A DNA stretch of 64,000 nt from a virus (lineage: Duplodnaviria > Heunggongvirae > Uroviricota > Caudoviricetes). The stretch spans positions 45,858 through 109,857 of the IMG/VR virus record IMGVR_UViG_3300028048_001412; one strand, written 5' to 3'. The notes under the pieces are model-generated. The model had not been told where the DNA came from. It did no database searches and worked only from the letters and a program-made list of their open reading frames with translations. Each line of letters starts with the position of its first letter. The first letter of the stretch is position 1. Below are positions 50,964 to 64,000 of the stretch, piece by piece. Made by a program: the position numbers and the translations under genes.

Positions 50964-52316
50964 TTATAATTCTCCTTTTTCAAATAAATTAGCTTTAATA
51001 GCGGCTGATTGTAAACTTTCTTTCAATTCACTAATCTTAAGCTCTGGGAATCTTGATCTAACTGTATCTATAATACTTGTTAAAACTTCTACTGATGAAT
51101 TATCATAAATGAAATCTGTATTATTTAATACATTCTTATAAGCTTTTTGAGCTAATTTAGTATCTTTCATTATTTGATCATCACCTGCAATATTAGAAAG
51201 AGTAGTATATATAGATAATAATTTTAATTGATTACTTAATCCTTTATAATTTTTATATTTTGCTGGTGCTTTAGAAAAATCTTCAGTAGATAATAATTCT
51301 GGCGGAATCATATCTTGTTTATTTTCTATATAAATCATAAAGTCATCAGTTAATGAACCTATTAAAGTAAATGCTTCTTCTCTTATATAATCTAAATATT
51401 CATCTACTGATTTAAATATTCCACATTCTAAATAATAATCTGCATCATATATTGAAGCATTTAATTTTTCCCATTGTCTTGGATTTGGAGTAGTTGCACC
51501 TTCATTCATTCTTATATCTTCAGTTGTATCTATTTGTAAATTATCAGGTTTATCTTCAAGATAAGCCATAATTAATGGGTGAATACCTTTTCTTCCTGTT
51601 TCTTCTTCTACCCAATCCATAGCCCATTTTTTCCAATCTTTAAAATCAGGTTTTACAAACCAAACTTGGAATCTATTTTTAACATTATATCCAAAAGTAG
51701 TTGTTCCTTCTTGTATTGTATCCATTGTATTACCAGCGGCAATTACTATCCAAGATGGAGGAATAATTGGATATACTTTTTTCATTTCACCAGTAGTTTT
51801 TTGTAATGGAGTTCCACAAAGAGTAAGTAATTCAGTTCTAGTAGACCAATCCATACTTGTAATTTCGTCTAAAAATAATATACCTGGTTTATTATATGCT
51901 AAATTAGGATCTTTTGCTTCTTTCTCATCTTTTGGAGGTGGTGGTAAAATATAATCCATCATTAATTTAGATATACTATCTAATTTACCATCTGGTCTAG
52001 TTGATACTGGAACTGGAATACCATTAATTTCTCCTCTTTCTAATTGATCACAAGGAACACATTTAATAGCAACATCAATATCAACTCCAAATTCTTTTTT
52101 GATATCTTCACCTATACATTGAATTGATTGTGTCTTTCCGGCACCTGGTTCTGATATTAACCAATAATTTCTTTTAATTTTAGGTTTTACACCAGCTTTA
52201 ACAGCTCTATTTATACTTATAAGTTCAAGTTTAACATGTCTTAATGCCTCTTTTAAAGAACCTCTCATTTGAACTGGTTGTATTACTACTGTTTTTTCTT
52301 CTGCTTTTGAAGCCAT
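50964..52316 (-). CDS. MoxR-like (AAA_5 type) ATPase
   Basis: SEPGAGKT, GILFLDEIT, WIVIAAGN, NRF and PNPRQWE; directly downstream of a VWA/metallopeptidase gene. Confidence 0.88.
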   Translation of the reverse strand: MASKAEEKTVVIQPVQMRGSLKEALRHVKLELISINRAVKAGVKPKIKRNYWLISEPGAGKTQSIQCIGEDIKKEFGVDIDVAIKCVPCDQLERGEINGIPVPVSTRPDGKLDSISKLMMDYILPPPPKDEKEAKDPNLAYNKPGILFLDEITSMDWSTRTELLTLCGTPLQKTTGEMKKVYPIIPPSWIVIAAGNTMDTIQEGTTTFGYNVKNRFQVWFVKPDFKDWKKWAMDWVEEETGRKGIHPLIMAYLEDKPDNLQIDTTEDIRMNEGATTPNPRQWEKLNASIYDADYYLECGIFKSVDEYLDYIREEAFTLIGSLTDDFMIYIENKQDMIPPELLSTEDFSKAPAKYKNYKGLSNQLKLLSIYTTLSNIAGDDQIMKDTKLAQKAYKNVLNNTDFIYDNSSVEVLTSIIDTVRSRFPELKISELKESLQSAAIKANLFEKGEL

Positions 52317-52319
52317 ATA

Positions 52320-54203
52320 TTACTCATCTCCTTTTTTAGCTATACATTTTACTCCAAATGGAGCATTAAATGATCTATAATATGATTCATTGTATAATAC
52401 CCATATTACATATTTGAATTTTTTAGCCCATGATTTATCAGGCATATCAAAATATCCATCAGTATATACAACTAAATAATCAATCTTTTGTTTAACCGCA
52501 AATTCTAATGTCTTTTTTATATCAGTTCCACCAAATCCTTTTGCTTCTACTTTTTTAAATTGATTGAAATCTTTAAATTTACCCCAAGATGCAACTTCTG
52601 TATCCCAATAACATACAATACCTTCTACTCCATTTTGAAATTGTGTTAATAATGTATGTGTTTGATTATAAAATAAATTTAAATTATCATCATCTATTGA
52701 ACCTGAAGTATCTATTGCTAATAATAAATTCTTAAGTTTATTCTTTTCTCTTACTGCTCCTGGCATTATTGCTTTATATCCAGTAAATCTAGTAATTCTA
52801 TTTTGATGTGCTTTAGTATAAGTAGCAGACATATTTAGACTTTCTCTTAAGAATGGTTTTAATTTTTCTACCCATCCTACTGGTTCTGGTTGATTCCAAA
52901 GTTCAAATAATCTTGCTATATTTCCACATCCATCTCCGTGTTCTTTAGATTGAGAAAATTTTCTTAATGCTTTTTCTACTGAATCTTTTATTCTTTGTTC
53001 TACTGATTCATCTTTTCTATTTATACTTTCTGAATCTTCTTTTATATCTTCTAAATCTGCTTCACCTATTTCAATAGTATGACCATCTAAAGTAATTGTC
53101 TTTTTACCCTTACCTTTTCCTTTTTGGCTTTTAGAATTTTGATCTTGATTTTCATCTTGTGAATCATTATTTCCATTAGAATCTTGATTAGAATCACCAT
53201 CTTGACCATTTTCTGAAGAATCTCCATCACCATTCATATTACTATTAAAATTAGGATTTTGTTGAACTAATCTATTATAAATAGTTTCTGTAGTTTCTTT
53301 TTCTATGTCAATTGTACTAATATATAATCCACCATGAGCAAATTCTGCATCAGGACCTTCTTTAGATGGAGTACATTGTAAATCTAAAGATAATGTTTTA
53401 TTTATAATTAAGTCTCCTGCAATATTCCATAATTGAGAATTTCTTTTTCTTATTCTCGCATGATGTTTAAATACAATATGACCTGCTTCATGACAAAGAA
53501 TAAATACCATTTCTTTTACTGTTCTTTGTAAAGCAAATTCAGAATTGACAAATAAAAATCCTGGTGAAACTCCTAATGTTTTACATCTTTTATCATCAAA
53601 TCTAGTAGTTAATTCACTTAAAATTAAATAATAGAAAAGATATTTTTTCTTAATTATACTTTTAGCTCTTAATATTAAATCTTCTGCTTTTCTATCAATT
53701 GGTGTTTTTTCAAATGATAATTCTAATGTATTTATAAATCTAGGATTTGATTTTACTTCTTGTGATATATTTTGATTATAAATAGCATTTCTTTGTTCTT
53801 TAGATAAATCTTCTGAAAATGCACTTTGAACATCTATTTTGGATTTATCTAAAGATTTATCTACTTTATCTTTCAATGATTTTATATAATCATCTTGAGT
53901 AGATACTTTTATTCCTTTAAATGTTTTTCCTTTAGGTTGTACTTTTTCTACTATTTCTTCATAAGGAATATTTTTAGATTTTACACTATTAATGGCTTTT
54001 TCATAAGGAACATTTGTTAAAATCATTCCTTTACCATCTTTCAATCTACATACACTGCAAAGTTTTTCAGCAGGGCTAATTTCTTCAATCTTAAATATTA
54101 TTGTTTTTCCATCACAGTTCTTATCACAAACTGCATTAGTCCCTTTCTTTGTGTATTCATTTTCAGTATCTAATATTTGATTTTCACCAATATAAATTAA
54201 CAA
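52320..54203 (-). CDS. Metallopeptidase (HExxH) plus VWA-like protein (DUF2201-type)
   Basis: FILCHEAGHIVFKH zincin motif; WNIAGDLIIN; D/N/S/Q linker; LAIDTSGSI MIDAS; GGTD; VYTDGY. Confidence 0.88.
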   Translation of the reverse strand: MLIYIGENQILDTENEYTKKGTNAVCDKNCDGKTIIFKIEEISPAEKLCSVCRLKDGKGMILTNVPYEKAINSVKSKNIPYEEIVEKVQPKGKTFKGIKVSTQDDYIKSLKDKVDKSLDKSKIDVQSAFSEDLSKEQRNAIYNQNISQEVKSNPRFINTLELSFEKTPIDRKAEDLILRAKSIIKKKYLFYYLILSELTTRFDDKRCKTLGVSPGFLFVNSEFALQRTVKEMVFILCHEAGHIVFKHHARIRKRNSQLWNIAGDLIINKTLSLDLQCTPSKEGPDAEFAHGGLYISTIDIEKETTETIYNRLVQQNPNFNSNMNGDGDSSENGQDGDSNQDSNGNNDSQDENQDQNSKSQKGKGKGKKTITLDGHTIEIGEADLEDIKEDSESINRKDESVEQRIKDSVEKALRKFSQSKEHGDGCGNIARLFELWNQPEPVGWVEKLKPFLRESLNMSATYTKAHQNRITRFTGYKAIMPGAVREKNKLKNLLLAIDTSGSIDDDNLNLFYNQTHTLLTQFQNGVEGIVCYWDTEVASWGKFKDFNQFKKVEAKGFGGTDIKKTLEFAVKQKIDYLVVYTDGYFDMPDKSWAKKFKYVIWVLYNESYYRSFNAPFGVKCIAKKGDE

Positions 54204-54782: not shown

Positions 54783-54825
54783 ATTATATATGATTTTCAG
54801 ATATGAATATATAAAAAATATTATA
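54783..54825 (-). promoter_or_regulatory. Box-type promoter E
   Basis: TATAATATTTTTTAT-atattcatatctgaaaatcata-TATAAT; the box overlaps the stop codon of 54821..56338. Confidence 0.65.
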
Positions 54826-56338
54826 AAATCTCTGTTTTTTCAGATTTTTCAGAAAATAAAGACTTATATTCTTTAGAATTTTCAAATGTTTTTTCATATT
54901 CTCTAACTCTATTATATTCAGGTAATATTACTTGTTCAAATATCTCTTTTCTCATTTTTCTAAATTTATGATTCTTTTGTGAATAACAACAATCATATAC
55001 ATTCCATAATATTTCATCAGGATTATCTTTTAATATTCTTTTCATCAATTCAATGGCCATTACTGATTCCCACCAGAATACTTCATTAGATAAAGTTTTT
55101 CTACAATTCATTTCATCAAATAAAACATTACAGAATCTAGATAATCTTTCTTTATAATTAGTATCATCTATATTTAATAATTTAGATAAATTTTCTAGTC
55201 TTTTTTCATCTTTATTTTTAAATTCATATAATCCTTTTAATCTTGCATATGCTAATTTAGGAGAATGACTAAAATAAGCTGGTAAAAAGTTCATTTTAAT
55301 TGCTTCTCTTAATTCAGATTGTTTATGAGATTCTATATGAAATTCTTTACATAATTTATCAGCAACTTTTCCATAGATATCATGATTTTCATTAATCCAT
55401 TTTTTAGTAGAAATAGATTTTTGAAGTCTAGGAATTTCGGATTTAATATCATTTTCTCCAAAATCGTGTAAATTATATCTTTCCATTACTATTTGTTTTA
55501 CTTTTTTATGGCCTTGTTCTTTTTGTAATTTTTCAAATAAAATATCATCACCATTACATATTTTAGCTCTTCCGTTACACATAGAATTAGTTAATCTAAT
55601 TGATATTTTAGCTAATCTATCATTATTTTTTTTACAATGTTTTATATGTAAATCTAATGTTCCTTGAAGAGGAATAGGTAATGATTCATTTATCTTTTCT
55701 AATTTTTCTTTCCATTGATTTATATGATATTTATGTTCTATCTTTTTAGCAATTAATTCAGGATTATATTTAGTAAAGTTTCTATATTGGTCTGCGCTTA
55801 TAGTAACTGTATTATCATGTAAAGTTTTAGGTTTTCTATTTTTAGGTAATTCTTTCTTTTTAGTTCTTGATAATATAAACTTATCATTATGTTTTATTCC
55901 ATAATTATCAAGTTTAGTTATTAAATTCATTAATTTTTCTTGATTAACTTTGAATCTAACAGAAAAATTAAGTTTTTTCATAGGATAAGTATCATAGAAT
56001 ATATAAGTTTGACCGCCTTCTTCTTTAGGACATAAATAAAGTTCTCTTTTTCCTTTATCATTAATGAAACTTTTCAAATATAAAGGTTCAATAATATTTT
56101 CTTTTTTAAGATATCTTATATAACTATATCCTGTATTTGTATTTCCATTGAATATTTCCCAATTTTTAGAATATATAAAATCAGTATTTTCATCAACTTC
56201 ATTATAGTATTTATTTTTTCTTGCATTTTCAGACAGAGATTTTATATGGTAGCAAAAAGTAGATAAATTCACTGGACTTAAGAATTTACCCATATTTAAT
56301 TCTGACCTTATTTTTTGAAACGCTGTCTGTTCACTCAT
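54821..56338 (-). CDS. Divergent family-A-polymerase-like protein (TV-Pol-like); candidate replication initiator/primase
   Basis: Motif A-like ENDIKSEIPRL, motif B-like REAIKMNFLPAYF and motif C-like WNVYDCCY, in the correct order; no exonuclease domain. Confidence 0.5.
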   Translation of the reverse strand: MSEQTAFQKIRSELNMGKFLSPVNLSTFCYHIKSLSENARKNKYYNEVDENTDFIYSKNWEIFNGNTNTGYSYIRYLKKENIIEPLYLKSFINDKGKRELYLCPKEEGGQTYIFYDTYPMKKLNFSVRFKVNQEKLMNLITKLDNYGIKHNDKFILSRTKKKELPKNRKPKTLHDNTVTISADQYRNFTKYNPELIAKKIEHKYHINQWKEKLEKINESLPIPLQGTLDLHIKHCKKNNDRLAKISIRLTNSMCNGRAKICNGDDILFEKLQKEQGHKKVKQIVMERYNLHDFGENDIKSEIPRLQKSISTKKWINENHDIYGKVADKLCKEFHIESHKQSELREAIKMNFLPAYFSHSPKLAYARLKGLYEFKNKDEKRLENLSKLLNIDDTNYKERLSRFCNVLFDEMNCRKTLSNEVFWWESVMAIELMKRILKDNPDEILWNVYDCCYSQKNHKFRKMRKEIFEQVILPEYNRVREYEKTFENSKEYKSLFSEKSEKTEIL

Positions 56339-56401
56339 AAATATTCTCTTTTATTTATTTACTTAGTTAATTTTATTTATTATGTTATATTTATTTTTAA
56401 T

Positions 56402-56444
56402 ATTATACTATATTTTTTATCTTTATTATATAAAAAATAATATA
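56402..56444 (-). promoter_or_regulatory. Box-type promoter F (variant box)
   Basis: TATATTATTTTTTAT-ataataaagataaaaaatatag-TATAAT. Confidence 0.55.
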
Positions 56445-56556
56445 TTATATCCCATAACATTTAATATGTCCCTGAAATCAACTAAATTTAACATATTTTT
56501 AACACCTGAATTTTCATATGTTAATAAAAAATTAATAATTTTTTTTTATTAAACCC

Positions 56557-56585
56557 TTGATTTTTTATAATTATTATATTATAAT
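56557..56585 (+). promoter_or_regulatory. Canonical sigma-A promoter for the sigma-like gene
   Basis: TTGATT-N17-TATAAT, ~35 nt upstream of ATG 56621; GAGGAG RBS. Confidence 0.75.
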
Positions 56586-56620
56586 AATATAAAAATTTAA
56601 TAGAGGAGAAACTGTTTTTT

Positions 56621-57391
56621 ATGAAAGTAGAAATTAACGACATCGAGACTAATCCTGAATATCGTAGATGGGTAGGTGAAAAGAAAGAAGCTTACCCAGA
56701 TATAAACATGATTAAAAATTACTATGAAACTCATTCATTAGAAATGCTCAATGAAATATTGAGAAGATTCCAAAGACTCATTATTAAGATTCTAAATGAT
56801 AATTCTACATTATGGGAAAAAAATCCAAGAGTTAGTAAAGAAGATTTAATTCAAGAATTAAATCTAGCAATAGTAGAAACATTAAATGAAGAAGTGTATA
56901 AGATTAAAGATGGTGGAGTTCAGCCTTCTACTTATTTTTATGGAGTATGCTATTCACATATTTTGATTTATCTTGAAAAGAATTCTGATTCTATTTTTAC
57001 CCATAAGAATTTAGCAGATATCAAGAAAGAAAAAATTATTAAAGAATTTGGAGATTCAGATGAAGTTTTAAAGAAACATGGAATTAAAAAGAAAAATTTA
57101 AGTAGATGGTTGCCAAAGACTATTAAATCATTCACGGATAAACCATCTGAAGATAGTAAACATACTTATGAAGAATTAATTCCAGATGGTAGATTAAATC
57201 CAGAACAAGAACTATATCAAAGGCAAAAAGAAGAAATGGTAGATAATATTTTAAGAGAAAATCTTAAAGAAGAAGAGTATAATATAGTAAGAGATTATAT
57301 GGATGAAAATTCCAAAAGAAAAATTCCTATAAATATTAGAACTAAATTATCTAAAATAGATAAATTAAGAAAATTATTCGAGGAAGGATAA
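56621..57391 (+). CDS. Sigma-70-family-like RNA polymerase factor with degenerate or truncated region 4
   Basis: Region 2: EDLIQELNLAIVETL...PSTYFYGVCYSHILIYL; region 3.2-like SFTDKPSEDSKHTYEELIPDGRLNPEQ; no region 4.2 HTH pattern. Confidence 0.72.
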   Translation: MKVEINDIETNPEYRRWVGEKKEAYPDINMIKNYYETHSLEMLNEILRRFQRLIIKILNDNSTLWEKNPRVSKEDLIQELNLAIVETLNEEVYKIKDGGVQPSTYFYGVCYSHILIYLEKNSDSIFTHKNLADIKKEKIIKEFGDSDEVLKKHGIKKKNLSRWLPKTIKSFTDKPSEDSKHTYEELIPDGRLNPEQELYQRQKEEMVDNILRENLKEEEYNIVRDYMDENSKRKIPINIRTKLSKIDKLRKLFEEG

Positions 57392-60795: not shown

Positions 60796-63033
60796 ATGGC
60801 AAGTAATATAATTAGTGTAGAAATAAATAAACCATATAATGTAAGTCCAATATTATCTTCTAAATCCGCATTTTTAACTTTTGATTATGACCCAAAAATA
60901 GTAGATTATATAAAATCTATTCCTTATAATAAAAGAAGTTATAATCCAAAATTAAGAGAATGGGAGATAGAAGAATCTTTATTACCTAGTCTTATAAAAG
61001 CATTCTCAAATTATCAATTTAGAATTCATAATAAGATTTCAGAAGATGAATCTAATAAAATATTATGTCAAATACCGGAGAATTATAACTTCGGTAATTT
61101 TCAACCTTTTAATTTTCAACGTGAAGCTATTACTAAAGGTATAAATACTAATAATTTATTGCTGGCCGACGATATGGGCTGTATAGATGGTGATGCAATA
61201 ATAGATTTACATACTCCTCGTAAAAAAATTAAATTATCTGATTTATATAAAGAATTTAAAAATAAAAATCCTAAAGATAGATGGAATACTAGAACTTGGA
61301 ATAATCATTTCTTTCAAGATGGAGAAATAATAGACGTTTTAGATTCTGGGATTAAAGAATGTATAAAAATAATTACAGAGACAGGGAGGGAATTAATATT
61401 AACTCCTGATCATAAAATATTTACAGATATTCGTGATTATGATAATGGACATTGGATAGAAGCAAAAGATTCATTAGATAAAAAAATTTTATGTGATAAA
61501 ATATTTCATAAATGGGAAGATAAATTTGAAAAAGTAATAAAAATAGAAAGCGCAGGTAAAAGACAAGTATATGATATAAAAATAAATGAACCATTTCATA
61601 ATTTTTTAGCAAATGGAATAGTCGTTCATAATTGTGGCAAAACGATGGAAGCATATCATATAACTAATATACATAGTCAAAATAAAGTATTGGTAGTAGT
61701 TTGTTCTTCTGTTTTGAAATATAATTGGAAAAAAGAAATATTAAAAATAGATAATGGTGAACAAGCATATATATTAGGAGAAGAAGGAGATACTAAAGGA
61801 AAATTAGAAGATAAAAAGAATGATATTGCTTCTAAAATTACTTTTGCTTCTCCTTATAAATATTTTATTACTAATAAAGAATTATTTTCTAGAAATGAAG
61901 ATGCTTGTAAATTAATTCGAGAAAAAATTAAAATGGGTATTATTGATACTATTGTTATTGATGAGGCTCATTTAGGATTTACTAGTCCAAAAAATAAATT
62001 TTCAAAAGCAATGTTGAAAATGGAACCTAAATATAAAATGATAGTAACTGGAACTCCTATGAAAAATGTTCCTACTGATTTTTATTGTTATCTTAAATGG
62101 TTCGGATTAGTAAATCAAGATTATTGGCATTTTGAAAATGAATTGACTGTTAAAAATGAATGGGGTTCTGTAGTAGAATATGTTCATCCAGAAAAAATAG
62201 CTGAAAAAATAAAACCTTATATGATTAGACGTAAAAAAGAAGAAGTTATTGATGAATTGCCAGAAAGAACATTTGTAAATGAAGTTATTGAAATGACTCC
62301 AGAACATGATAAATTATATAGAAAGATTATAAACGATATAGTTGAAAATAAAAATGAAGGATTAAAAATCAAAGAAAGATTTATGCCTGAACAAGAAACT
62401 ATATTGGGTGAAATAGTTAATGCCCAAAAATGTACTAGTCTTCCTATATGGTGTGATGATAAATTTGATGAAAAGAAAGATAATAAGTTAAAGAGAATAG
62501 AAGAATTATTGGAAACTATTACTCAAGAAGGAAATAAATCAATATTATTTAGTCATTTTACTACCACTACTAATTTTTATAGAGAATATTTTAAGAAATA
62601 TAATCCTGCTTATATTACTGGAGAACTATCAGCTAAAGCAAAATCAGAACAAGAAGATAAATTAAATAATGATGATTCTTGTAAATTATGTATTATAAGC
62701 CAAGCAGGAGGACAGGGATTAAATCTTATTAAAGCTTCTTATTTAATTATGGTAGATTATCCCTGGAATAATTCAAATTACAGTCAGATTATAGATAGAA
62801 CGTATAGAATAGGACAGAAGAAGAATTGCACCGTGATAAATATGATATATAAAGATACAATAGATGAGCAACAATTAGATCTTATAAATAATAGAGGAAT
62901 TATGTCAGAATGTATGGTCAACGGCTCTGAAAAAATAAATGTTAAAAAATTATTACAATCAGTCAAGGCAATAATGAAAAAACAGCTTATAAAAAAGAAA
63001 AGTGTTAAAAGCAGATTTGAAAATGAAAATTAA
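60796..63033 (+). CDS. SNF2-family helicase (phage/HARP-like) interrupted by an intein
   Basis: LLADDMG|CGKT, IVIDEAH, VTGTPMKN, MIRRKKEEV, ILFSHF, AGGQGLNL, QIIDRTYRIGQ. Confidence 0.93.
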   Translation: MASNIISVEINKPYNVSPILSSKSAFLTFDYDPKIVDYIKSIPYNKRSYNPKLREWEIEESLLPSLIKAFSNYQFRIHNKISEDESNKILCQIPENYNFGNFQPFNFQREAITKGINTNNLLLADDMGCIDGDAIIDLHTPRKKIKLSDLYKEFKNKNPKDRWNTRTWNNHFFQDGEIIDVLDSGIKECIKIITETGRELILTPDHKIFTDIRDYDNGHWIEAKDSLDKKILCDKIFHKWEDKFEKVIKIESAGKRQVYDIKINEPFHNFLANGIVVHNCGKTMEAYHITNIHSQNKVLVVVCSSVLKYNWKKEILKIDNGEQAYILGEEGDTKGKLEDKKNDIASKITFASPYKYFITNKELFSRNEDACKLIREKIKMGIIDTIVIDEAHLGFTSPKNKFSKAMLKMEPKYKMIVTGTPMKNVPTDFYCYLKWFGLVNQDYWHFENELTVKNEWGSVVEYVHPEKIAEKIKPYMIRRKKEEVIDELPERTFVNEVIEMTPEHDKLYRKIINDIVENKNEGLKIKERFMPEQETILGEIVNAQKCTSLPIWCDDKFDEKKDNKLKRIEELLETITQEGNKSILFSHFTTTTNFYREYFKKYNPAYITGELSAKAKSEQEDKLNNDDSCKLCIISQAGGQGLNLIKASYLIMVDYPWNNSNYSQIIDRTYRIGQKKNCTVINMIYKDTIDEQQLDLINNRGIMSECMVNGSEKINVKKLLQSVKAIMKKQLIKKKSVKSRFENEN
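61180..61632 (+). mobile_element. Class 1 mini-intein (151 aa)
   Basis: Starts CIDGDA; block B LTPDHKIF; block F VYDI; ends HNFLANGIVVHN; +1 Cys; no LAGLIDADG domain. Confidence 0.92.
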
Positions 63034-64000
63034 TGATGAAAATATTTTAAAAATATTTATAATTAAAAATAATAAAATAAATAGTAATAAATGCAATGAT
63101 AAATGGCTTAATGAAAACATCGAAATTAAAGAATATTTGAAGAACAGATATGGTTATTTTAATGGTAAATATAAAGACGTTATTAATTTAATTAAAAATG
63201 GTTATAAAGAATGGCCTAAATGTAAAACGTGTGGAAAATATTTAAACGATCCTTGTAAAATTAAATATTGTTCTTTCAAATGCTCTAATTCAAATAAAGA
63301 AAAAATAGAAAAAGTTAAGGGTACTTGTTTGGAAAAATTCGGAAGTATTTGTCCTTTTGGAAATGAAAAAATAAAAGAAAAAACCAAACAAACTTGGATT
63401 AAAAATTTAGGAGTAGATCATCCTTCAAAATCAAAAAAAGTTAAAGATAAGATTAAAAATACTAATATTAAAAATTTAGGAGTAGAGAGTCCATTTAAAT
63501 CAAAAGAATGCAGGGAGAAAGCAAAGAAAACTTGTTTAAAAAAATTTGGTGTAGAATACGCTTCTCAATCAGACGATATTAAAAATAAAGTAAAACAAAC
63601 ATGTTTAAAAAATCTAGGAGTAGAATATCCATCTCAGAGCAAAGAAGTAAAAGAGAAGAAAAAACAAACTTATTTGAAAAATTACGGTGTAGATAATCCG
63701 TTTAAATCAAAAGAATGTAGAGAAAAGAGTAAACAAACTTTATTAGAGAAAACCGGATATGAATATAATTCACAAGATCCGAAAAATAAAGAAAAAGTTA
63801 AAAAGACATGGAAAAATAAATCTAAAGGAGAATTACAAAAAATAAGAGAAAAGACCGATAAAACTAATTTGAAAAAATATGGAACTAAAAATATTTTTCA
63901 AAATGAAAAAATAAAAGAAAAAGCAAAACAAACAATATTAAATAAATATAAAGTTGAGAATGTAAGTCAATCAGAAGAGATTAAAAAGAAAAAAGAGAAA
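63023..64000 (+). CDS. Homing-endonuclease-associated repeat protein (Zn finger plus 23-aa repeats); 3' end beyond the window (not in ORF track)
   Basis: Hand translation is open for 326 codons: PKCKTCG...YCSFKC, then ~9 repeats like TCLKNLGVEYPSQSKEVKEKKKQ; overlaps the SNF2 stop by 11 nt; nuclease domain not visible in the window. Confidence 0.75.
   Translation, partial: MKINDENILKIFIIKNNKINSNKCNDKWLNENIEIKEYLKNRYGYFNGKYKDVINLIKNGYKEWPKCKTCGKYLNDPCKIKYCSFKCSNSNKEKIEKVKGTCLEKFGSICPFGNEKIKEKTKQTWIKNLGVDHPSKSKKVKDKIKNTNIKNLGVESPFKSKECREKAKKTCLKKFGVEYASQSDDIKNKVKQTCLKNLGVEYPSQSKEVKEKKKQTYLKNYGVDNPFKSKECREKSKQTLLEKTGYEYNSQDPKNKEKVKKTWKNKSKGELQKIREKTDKTNLKKYGTKNIFQNEKIKEKAKQTILNKYKVENVSQSEEIKKKKEK

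Follow-up and report, generated by a model that had tools for sequence, protein, structure and literature searches.

The window analysed here, a stretch of 64,000 nucleotides, comprises bases 45858–109857 of IMG/VR record IMGVR_UViG_3300028048_001412, a single 284,018-bp contig that is listed as a virus record (CheckV 92%), has no terminal repeats and has a GC content of ~25%. Within it, a minus-strand gene for a protein of 505 amino acids (aa), here called P0001, begins beside an AT-rich spacer at which gene orientation flips. An earlier note on this DNA had read P0001 as a stand-alone protein resembling family-A polymerases and had proposed the gene and the spacer as a new replication initiator and its origin. 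The gene and its parts are listed below, with conservation counted in a 49-sequence family alignment whose members share 20–30% pairwise identity with P0001.

54821..56338 (stop codon included), minus strand: P0001 gene, 505 aa; open reading frame (ORF) with a 100% match at C1:100681-102195 of the element's own record
55892..56338, minus strand: predicted N-terminal winged-helix DNA-binding domain, residues 1–149, with a low-confidence insert at 88–125
54884..55771, minus strand: compact superfamily-A polymerase-like domain, residues 190–485, with two-helix thumb stub, beta-hairpin, palm and helical fingers
55595..55597, minus strand: R248 in the beta-hairpin (KISIRLTN; strands 226–234 and 242–251), counterpart of Klenow R668; invariant in 49/49
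55427..55450, minus strand: motif A, DIKSEIPR (D297 to R304), counterpart of DYSQIELR; D297 and R304 in 49/49
55379..55381, minus strand: D320, conserved fingers aspartate, pairing with the "D-h" Asp of the PolA fingers; 48 Asp and 1 Glu of 49
55271..55309, minus strand: motif B/O-helix REAIKMNFLPAYF, R344-x3-K348-x7-F356, in helix 337–355; Arg, Lys and Phe in 49/49
55064..55078, minus strand: FWWES (F421, E424, S425), invariant helix before motif C (helix 419–438); 49/49
54989..55000, minus strand: motif C, VYDC (Y448-D449), at a beta-hairpin turn (strands 444–447 and 450–453), pairing with H881-D882; 48/48

Motifs A, B and C, which the earlier note had listed in this order, were confirmed at these positions. 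Because their key residues are invariant across the family alignment, DIKSEIPR, REAIKMNFLPAYF and VYDC are not chance motifs. The invariant set comprises R248, D297, R304, W314, Y322, R344, K348, F356, F421, E424 and S425, and Y448 and D449 were kept in all 48 sequences that reach that position. The spacings were close to those of Klenow, with 47 residues from D297 to R344 (49 from D705 to R754), four from the Arg to the Lys of motif B, and eight from K348 to F356 (also eight from K758 to Y766). The note had counted the Lys-to-Tyr distance of motif B as one residue short; Y355 does lie at K348+7, but the aromatic residue that never varies is F356, which occupies the canonical +8 position, and the motif is thus not truly shorter. 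P0001 carries the motif A and C aspartates, RxxxK and the aromatic residue at K+8 in the order and spacing canonical for superfamily A. The position of the steric-gate Glu (E710) corresponds to residue 302, where the alignment holds Val (43 sequences) or Ile (6); the F762-equivalent position is Leu or Met; and motif C has no second acidic residue, with Cys, Ala, Ser or Gly at the E883 position. The FWWES helix is probably the counterpart of helix Q in PolA. The absence of an exonuclease domain, also claimed in the note, was borne out, the N-terminus being occupied by the predicted winged helix.

We then examined predicted structures. The full-length AlphaFold model, built from a 17-sequence alignment, had a predicted local distance difference test (pLDDT) score of 73.7 and was confident for residues ~190–490, while a domain-only model of residues 185–505 reached a pLDDT of 83.4 and a predicted template modelling score (pTM) of 0.84. 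The models show a right-hand thumb-palm-fingers fold with an RRM-like palm, and the order of their secondary-structure elements matches that of TV-Pol, the compact family-A polymerases of mobile elements, and of Pol I. The antiparallel helices 193–203 and 206–217 form the thumb stub and are followed by a beta-hairpin (226–251) that bears R248. D297 lies in coil directly before helix 301–311, R344 and K348 lie on the long fingers helix 337–355, and the FxxES helix precedes a beta-hairpin (444–453) with Y448-D449 at its turn. In a structure search with the domain-only model, the first 12 matches were all family-A DNA or RNA polymerases, aligned over 189–244 residues, and the first unrelated match aligned over 84 residues. 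Foldseek placed Klenow, Bst, Taq and mitochondrial RNA polymerase (RNAP) near the top against the PDB at non-significant E-values (0.1–1); against BFVD, the best matches (E 2e-3 to 4.5e-2, probability 0.99–1.0) were compact phage proteins of 430–450 aa, of which one carries the name DNA polymerase. In the ESM Atlas, the annotated cluster closest in features was DNA_pol_A (0.85, to be read as a lead only), and comparison by structure gave a T7-type RNA_pol cluster (TM 0.60 over 246 residues) alongside three large unannotated viral clusters.

The Pfam DNA_pol_A model (PF00476) matched none of 17 family members at E 0.1, a hidden Markov model (HMM) of the family found no match among PDB sequences, and hhalign returned nothing significant either for the family against single PolA or T7 DNA polymerase sequences or for a 17-sequence family profile against an 11-sequence PolA profile (probability 0.4%). 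With a 48-sequence family profile, the single best local alignment spanned motif A to motif B (P 0.016, probability 2.9%). It paired D297 with D705, R304 with R712, D320 with the conserved fingers Asp, and R344, K348 and F356 with R754, K758 and Y766; a low-stringency extension added R248 with R668, within the TGR motif of PolA, and Y448-D449 with H881-D882. This pairing is statistically weak, yet it arose unsupervised and is consistent with the structural reading. The check that the note had suggested, by profile comparison, AlphaFold and Foldseek, therefore came out divided: the models resemble family-A polymerases, but similarity at the sequence and profile level is not significant. Taken together, the predicted fold and the invariant catalytic landmarks support the assignment of the C-terminal ~300 residues to the superfamily-A (PolA/T7 RNAP-like) thumb stub, palm and fingers.

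The family itself is unannotated and fast-evolving and occurs in mobile elements. P0001 had no match in Pfam, PHROGs, NCBIfam or PADLOC, and the sources examined gave no name to any protein of its family. Word-indexed protein searches recovered nothing beyond the query and a single fragment, tblastn returned a weak match in a phage and an insignificant one in a plasmid, and scans of viral contigs yielded no close relatives. Sixteen relatives (E 4.5e-14 to 7e-4) emerged from an exhaustive phmmer search that covered 1.84 billion representatives. A further 36 loci came from scanning species-representative genomes with a pattern; they were mostly in gut Clostridia (Oscillospiraceae, Acutalibacteraceae and Lachnospiraceae) with single cases in Porphyromonadaceae, Treponema and Fibrobacter. 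No member was seen within 10 kb of SNF2-related genes at nine viral loci. The catalogued protein of one homologue, P0013 (L004:82-1560), is obtained only if TAG encodes Gln, which places at least one family member on a stop-codon-recoded element or phage. For the 6.5-kb record MT837627, the idea of a Microviridae Rep was discarded, the record being a fragment with tyrosine integrase and helix-turn-helix (HTH) genes.

We next considered the position of the P0001 gene in the element. Apart from ten isolated opposite-strand ORFs, which mostly overlap longer genes, the ORFs of at least 120 aa in the record form only two blocks: a minus-strand block that starts at ~250.4 kb, spans the contig ends and stops at 102.2 kb, and a plus-strand block from 102.5 to 250 kb. 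The orientation flip described in the note was borne out within the window, where ORFs of at least 80 aa are all on the minus strand to the left of the spacer, bar short ones overlapping longer minus-strand ORFs, and all on the plus strand to its right, with one short exception that overlaps a longer ORF. Cumulative GC skew over the record reaches its minimum in the 100–104-kb bin (~102.3 kb) and its maximum near 250 kb, and the skew changes sign between 56.25 and 56.75 kb of the window at 250-bp resolution. The P0001 gene thus lies at the record's sole divergent switch and at its cumulative GC-skew minimum, with arms of ~136 and 148 kb. The spacer holds the following features.

56339..56620: spacer between the divergent genes, 282 bp, 12.4% GC; candidate origin region with the GC-skew sign change
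56488..56524: perfect 9-bp inverted repeat TTAACATAT / ATATGTTAA with a 19-nt spacer; exact
56444..56472, minus strand: promoter-like GGGACA-17-TATAAT toward the polymerase-like gene, 10/12 matches
56557..56585, plus strand: promoter-like TTGATT-17-TATAAT toward the first plus-arm gene, 10/12 matches

The spacer was indeed about 280 bp long and almost free of GC, as noted before. The 9-bp inverted repeat is exact at 56488–56496 and 56516–56524, but at least one such repeat occurred in 82% of Markov shuffles of the spacer, which also contains 30 imperfect inverted pairs because it is almost pure A+T. Likewise, the two divergent promoter-like sites are present, but hexamer pairs of this kind were at chance level (24, against 23.0 +/- 5.1 in shuffles). 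Since these features occur at the frequency seen in shuffles, the small DNA features of the spacer are uninformative alone, whereas the protein motifs are meaningful. Tandem repeats in the spacer were only weak and AT-rich, and no 10-mer occurred more than twice. A regular expression for a 15-bp dyad-box promoter core matched five sites in the window (8766, 16571, 31124, 43991 and 60677) and none at 54783–54825 or 56402–56444 (minus strand), which flank the polymerase-like gene; any copies of the box at these two places would have to be degenerate.

To the right of the spacer, the plus-strand arm opens with a replication module, whose first gene is given here.

56621..57391, plus strand: first plus-arm gene, 256 aa, opening the replication module; 27% identical to a 243-aa gene of the related contig L003

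This gene is followed by two membrane-like ORFs, an intein-containing SNF2 helicase gene and then homing endonucleases; farther right lie genes for a DnaB-like helicase, a DUF262-HNH nuclease, a DnaG-type primase, an HD protein and GyrB/GyrA-like topoisomerase subunits, and the stretch also encodes a single-strand annealing protein. The best PDB sequence match of the 243-aa L003 gene was an RNA polymerase sigma factor (E 0.018), and motifs resembling regions 2 and 4 were recognised in it by eye; the 256-aa gene had no Pfam sigma match. Judging from these sequence likenesses, the 256-aa protein is possibly sigma-factor-like, and the element may carry its own sigma factor right at the strand switch. 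Beyond the window, a 617-aa protein (L006:9757-11610, record 118757–120610) matched PHROG 1252, "DNA polymerase" (phrog_1252, E 8e-166). Pfam models for PolA, PolB and Pol III alpha had no match across the record, this protein included; it bore a faint likeness to the Pol alpha catalytic subunit (E 0.02) and no detectable relation to P0001 or PolA. It is probably the element's replicative polymerase, from a poorly modelled family. Because the element encodes its own DnaG-type primase and this polymerase, P0001 is neither its replicase nor its general primase.

Gene neighbourhoods of homologues were then compared. L003, a 74-kb metagenome contig, is a true relative of the element and the closest one, with 68% identity in SNF2, 64% in DnaB, 61% in DnaG and 58% in the HD protein, whereas its P0001 orthologue, P0002, is only 27.5% identical to P0001. 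P0002 is the first gene of a co-oriented block in which it is followed by genes for a 312-aa protein, the 243-aa protein, SNF2, DnaB and DnaG, so that the 243-aa gene lies two genes downstream of P0002 with the 312-aa gene between. An 830-bp non-coding stretch precedes P0002 and bears a cluster of ATACTATATATAGTAT-type palindromes that is unique within the 17-kb locus. Within L003:7340-7730, about six full or half copies of the ATACTATATATAGTAT palindrome and 54-nt imperfect inverted repeats were found; this region is a candidate iteron or operator array, or a candidate origin of the related element. Among the other large elements, a family member starts 2 bp after a full-length PolA gene in L009, another lies beside a clamp-loader-like AAA+ gene on a tailed-phage contig (L010), and a third lies near SNF2 and Toprim genes on a 303-kb contig (L005). 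IS605 OrfB also occurs in the replication-gene neighbourhoods of large-element homologues, together with SNF2, DnaB and DnaG.

Other members adjoin Tn7-like TnsB/TniB/TniQ genes and tyrosine integrases. In bacterial genomes, a recurrent layout runs from an HTH gene through a serine resolvase, three small unknown genes and the polymerase-like gene to a tyrosine integrase, with the serine resolvase present in 24 and the tyrosine integrase in 21 of the 36 genome loci. These cassettes in Clostridia look like an undescribed class of 6–8-kb integrative elements. At L033–L068 (e.g., L041:156-4574 and L042:1252-5726), the cassettes have HTH_3 at their start and often adjoin GGGtGRT and NifU-like genes. 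Neither a fusion to a D5-like helicase nor such a helicase in the neighbourhood was seen among the family loci.

The closest known counterparts are the TV-Pols, defined by Iyer, Abhiman and Aravind in 2008 as compact, nuclease-less family-A polymerases of mobile elements, with the fingers Asp as part of the definition (PMC2579912). P0001 has the same minimal core: a two-helix thumb, the beta-hairpin Arg, two palm Asp residues, the fingers Asp with RxxxK, and no nuclease. Its family also shares the TV-Pol context of gamma-delta-type resolvase, lambda-type integrase, transposase or replication helicases in phages and mobile elements, a context from which a primase-polymerase function was predicted and replicative transposons were proposed (PMC2579912). 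Some TV-Pols carry an extra N-terminal helical domain, and the neighbourhood reported for that subgroup (PMC2579912) is the same as that of the bacterial-genome loci; the N-terminal domain of the P0001 family differs in being specifically a winged helix. The family HMM had no match in T7 or pXO16 and found nothing at E <= 10 in the genome of Microcystis phage Ma-LMM01, which carries a TV-Pol. The comparison drawn in the note is therefore partly supported: the family is TV-Pol-like in architecture and gene context, but membership could not be shown at the sequence level by the family HMM, Pfam or hhalign.

A second point of comparison is CcPol with its partner MP from SCCmec, a proven primase (Bebel et al. 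2020; PMC7581432). CcPol likewise has an A-family polymerase domain and is encoded on a mobile element beside replication genes (PMC7581432, PMC10061031). It differs from P0001 in needing MP, a small OB-fold protein encoded just downstream, and in retaining a partial exonuclease domain where P0001 has a winged helix. It also keeps the E710 and F762 equivalents and uses deoxynucleoside triphosphates (PMC7581432), whereas P0001 has Ile/Val and Leu/Met at these positions. In view of these differences, the nucleotide-sugar preference of P0001 is not readable from sequence. No partner resembling a single-strand DNA-binding protein (SSB), such as a small OB-fold protein of the MP type, was found downstream of P0001 by BLAST, by PHROG, PADLOC or Pfam matches, or by eye. 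In the plasmid primases ColE2 Rep and pRN1 ORF904, the latter a primase-polymerase with a winged helix (PMC2777425), a winged helix tethers the primer-making domain to its own origin much as we propose for P0001; their primase domain has the unrelated archaeo-eukaryotic fold, and the likeness is one of analogy, not homology.

Our preferred reading, which we hold tentatively and at a little under an even chance, is that P0001 is a site-directed primer-making polymerase that starts replication of the element. It would be a two-domain enzyme in which a DNA-binding winged helix is joined to a minimal superfamily-A polymerase that keeps every catalytic landmark. The winged helix would bring P0001 to the AT-rich spacer at the replichore-like switch, where the enzyme would synthesise a short primer or primed loop, allowing the element's DnaB helicase, DnaG primase and replicative polymerase to take over. 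The analysis shows the fold, the conserved active site, the gene context and the location at the skew minimum; that P0001 binds the spacer, primes there, makes a product with a given sugar and takes part in initiation is what we infer from several observations. The conserved active site argues for catalysis, and fusion to a winged helix argues that the enzyme acts at one particular DNA site. The low identity of P0001 and P0002 beside SNF2, DnaB and DnaG proteins at 61–68% fits co-evolution with a cognate DNA site of its own. A role in element replication is also what the company of replication genes or small-element recombinases points to, as does the location of the gene where the only divergent switch coincides with the skew minimum. 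T7 RNAP primes at the T7 origin. By analogy with this priming, with origin-specific plasmid primases and with CcPol–MP, site-directed primer synthesis would, in our still tentative judgement, be the most economical mechanism.

Several observations weigh on the other side. The spacer contains no direct-repeat families or iterons and no excess of DnaA boxes, and in L003 no strand or skew switch is in view within 8 kb of P0002. Further, the element has its own DnaB, DnaG and DNA polymerase, and GC skew and gene orientation are confounded in this element, which qualifies the agreement of the global skew minimum with the gene. A Rep or primase with its origin is thus a hypothesis, and the "new replication initiator" is plausible rather than demonstrated.

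The main rival, which we regard as unlikely, is that P0001 is a minimal single-subunit RNA polymerase, kin to T7 RNAP and N4 RNAP II, that transcribes a subset of the element's genes, with the winged helix reading promoters. T7-like single-subunit RNAPs, including N4 RNAP II and the mitochondrial enzyme, measure 400–880 aa or more, against ~300 aa for the P0001 core, in which the T7 specificity loop, the intercalating hairpin and the N-terminal promoter-binding domain have no counterpart. The Arg at +7 of motif A, typical of DNA polymerases, is kept. Two features suggest that the element relies on the host RNA polymerase: the apparent sigma-like factor next door, and sigma-70-like -10 boxes at the repeated promoter motif whose core was matched five times in the window. 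In addition, many homologues reside in 6–8-kb integrative elements with very few genes to transcribe, and the L009 homologue is coupled to PolA. Pfam PF00940 (T7-type RNAP) gave no match over the record, an uninformative result, as the control was silent too.

It is improbable, in our view, that P0001 is a gap-filling or strand-displacement DNA polymerase for transposition or integration of small elements, with a passenger or repair use in the giant element. The commonest context of the family, serine resolvase plus tyrosine integrase, with Tn7-like TnsB/TniB/TniQ in addition, would suit such an enzyme, as would the replicative transposons proposed for TV-Pol elements (Iyer et al., PMC2579912) and the lack of conserved strand-switch adjacency in L003. 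In large elements, however, the gene accompanies replication genes and not recombinases, the nine ORFs scanned around P0001 included no recombinase gene, and generic gap filling needs no sequence-specific winged helix.

We consider it very improbable that P0001 serves as a polymerase-type effector in a conflict system directed at phages or at other elements, carried as mobile-element cargo and acting, for example, by untemplated or abortive synthesis. Other polymerase folds (DRT, AbiK) serve in anti-phage or conflict roles and provide a precedent, and the family is unannotated, fast-evolving and located on integrative elements. Against this, P0001 had no PADLOC match, its conserved neighbours gave only one negligible match (Cas9b, E 0.0011, 15.7 bits), and linkage to replication modules in four different large elements is unlike defence cargo. 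Least credible of all is a catalytically dead polymerase fold that serves solely to regulate by binding DNA or to bind the origin as a structural protein, for which the winged helix, the autoregulation-like position of the gene beside its own promoter and the "Pol" proteins of mobile genetic elements reduced to an inactive RRM core in Rice's survey (PMC10061031) could be cited, but under which the invariance of the metal-binding Asp residues, RxxxK, the O-helix aromatic residue and the hairpin Arg over 49 sequences of 20–30% identity is hard to explain.

What is new here is a separate branch covered by no database, the fusion of a winged helix in place of an SSB partner, and the location of the gene at the replichore-like switch of a 284-kb element that has a complete replisome already. 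Compact, nuclease-less family-A polymerases of mobile elements have been known since 2008, and priming by such an enzyme has been proven once; to our knowledge, CcPol–MP is the only family-A enzyme biochemically shown to prime. CcPol–MP aside, the function of TV-Pols has remained a prediction since 2008, and the P0001 family, for which no database model exists, spans at least 36 species-representative genomes, mostly of gut Clostridia, as well as several giant elements. If P0001 is a site-specific primer synthase, this would explain how these elements begin to replicate although they lack initiators of the DnaA or Rep type. It would also show how small a working core of the Pol I/T7 RNAP superfamily can be, and might offer a very small programmable polymerase. 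A bolder proposal, to which we give a rather small chance, is that the family represents the smallest known self-targeting relative of T7 RNAP, in which a winged helix guides a ~300-residue catalytic core to a defined site, where the core synthesises an RNA primer or R-loop and so initiates replication of giant plasmid- or phage-like elements and of small resolvase/integrase elements alike. If true, this would amount to a third priming route besides DnaG and the archaeo-eukaryotic primases, without the SSB partner of CcPol. If P0001 is merely a divergent TV-Pol whose role is accessory and ordinary, what is chiefly gained is the annotation of a recurrent "hypothetical protein".

Downstream of the P0001 gene lie ORFs of 53 and 90 aa, neither with BLAST similarity to ORFs of L002–L005. 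The 90-aa product is rich in Lys and Glu and appears helical by eye; it belonged to no PHROG or PADLOC family and had only a sub-threshold Pfam match (ERp29, 21 bits against a cut-off of 24.3 bits). Past these ORFs, at 50964–54203 on the minus strand of the window, are genes for a 627-aa DUF2201_N/DUF2201 protein, metallopeptidase-like and VWA-like, and a 450-aa ATPase (phrog_1297), which together resemble a MoxR/VWA-type pair. An idea of a chromosomal oriC with DnaA was rejected, as these two neighbours are the DUF2201/VWA metallopeptidase-like protein and ATPase and not MnmG/MnmE, and as the record is a 284-kb contig from a virus catalogue. On the other arm, the SNF2-family helicase gene (60796–63033, plus strand) contains an intein (Pfam Intein_splicing, residues 138–279). 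Its 593-aa L003 orthologue, 68% identical, aligns in two pieces, which suggests that the intein is absent there. The SNF2 gene is followed by a DUF7487 homing-endonuclease-like gene at 63002–64000.

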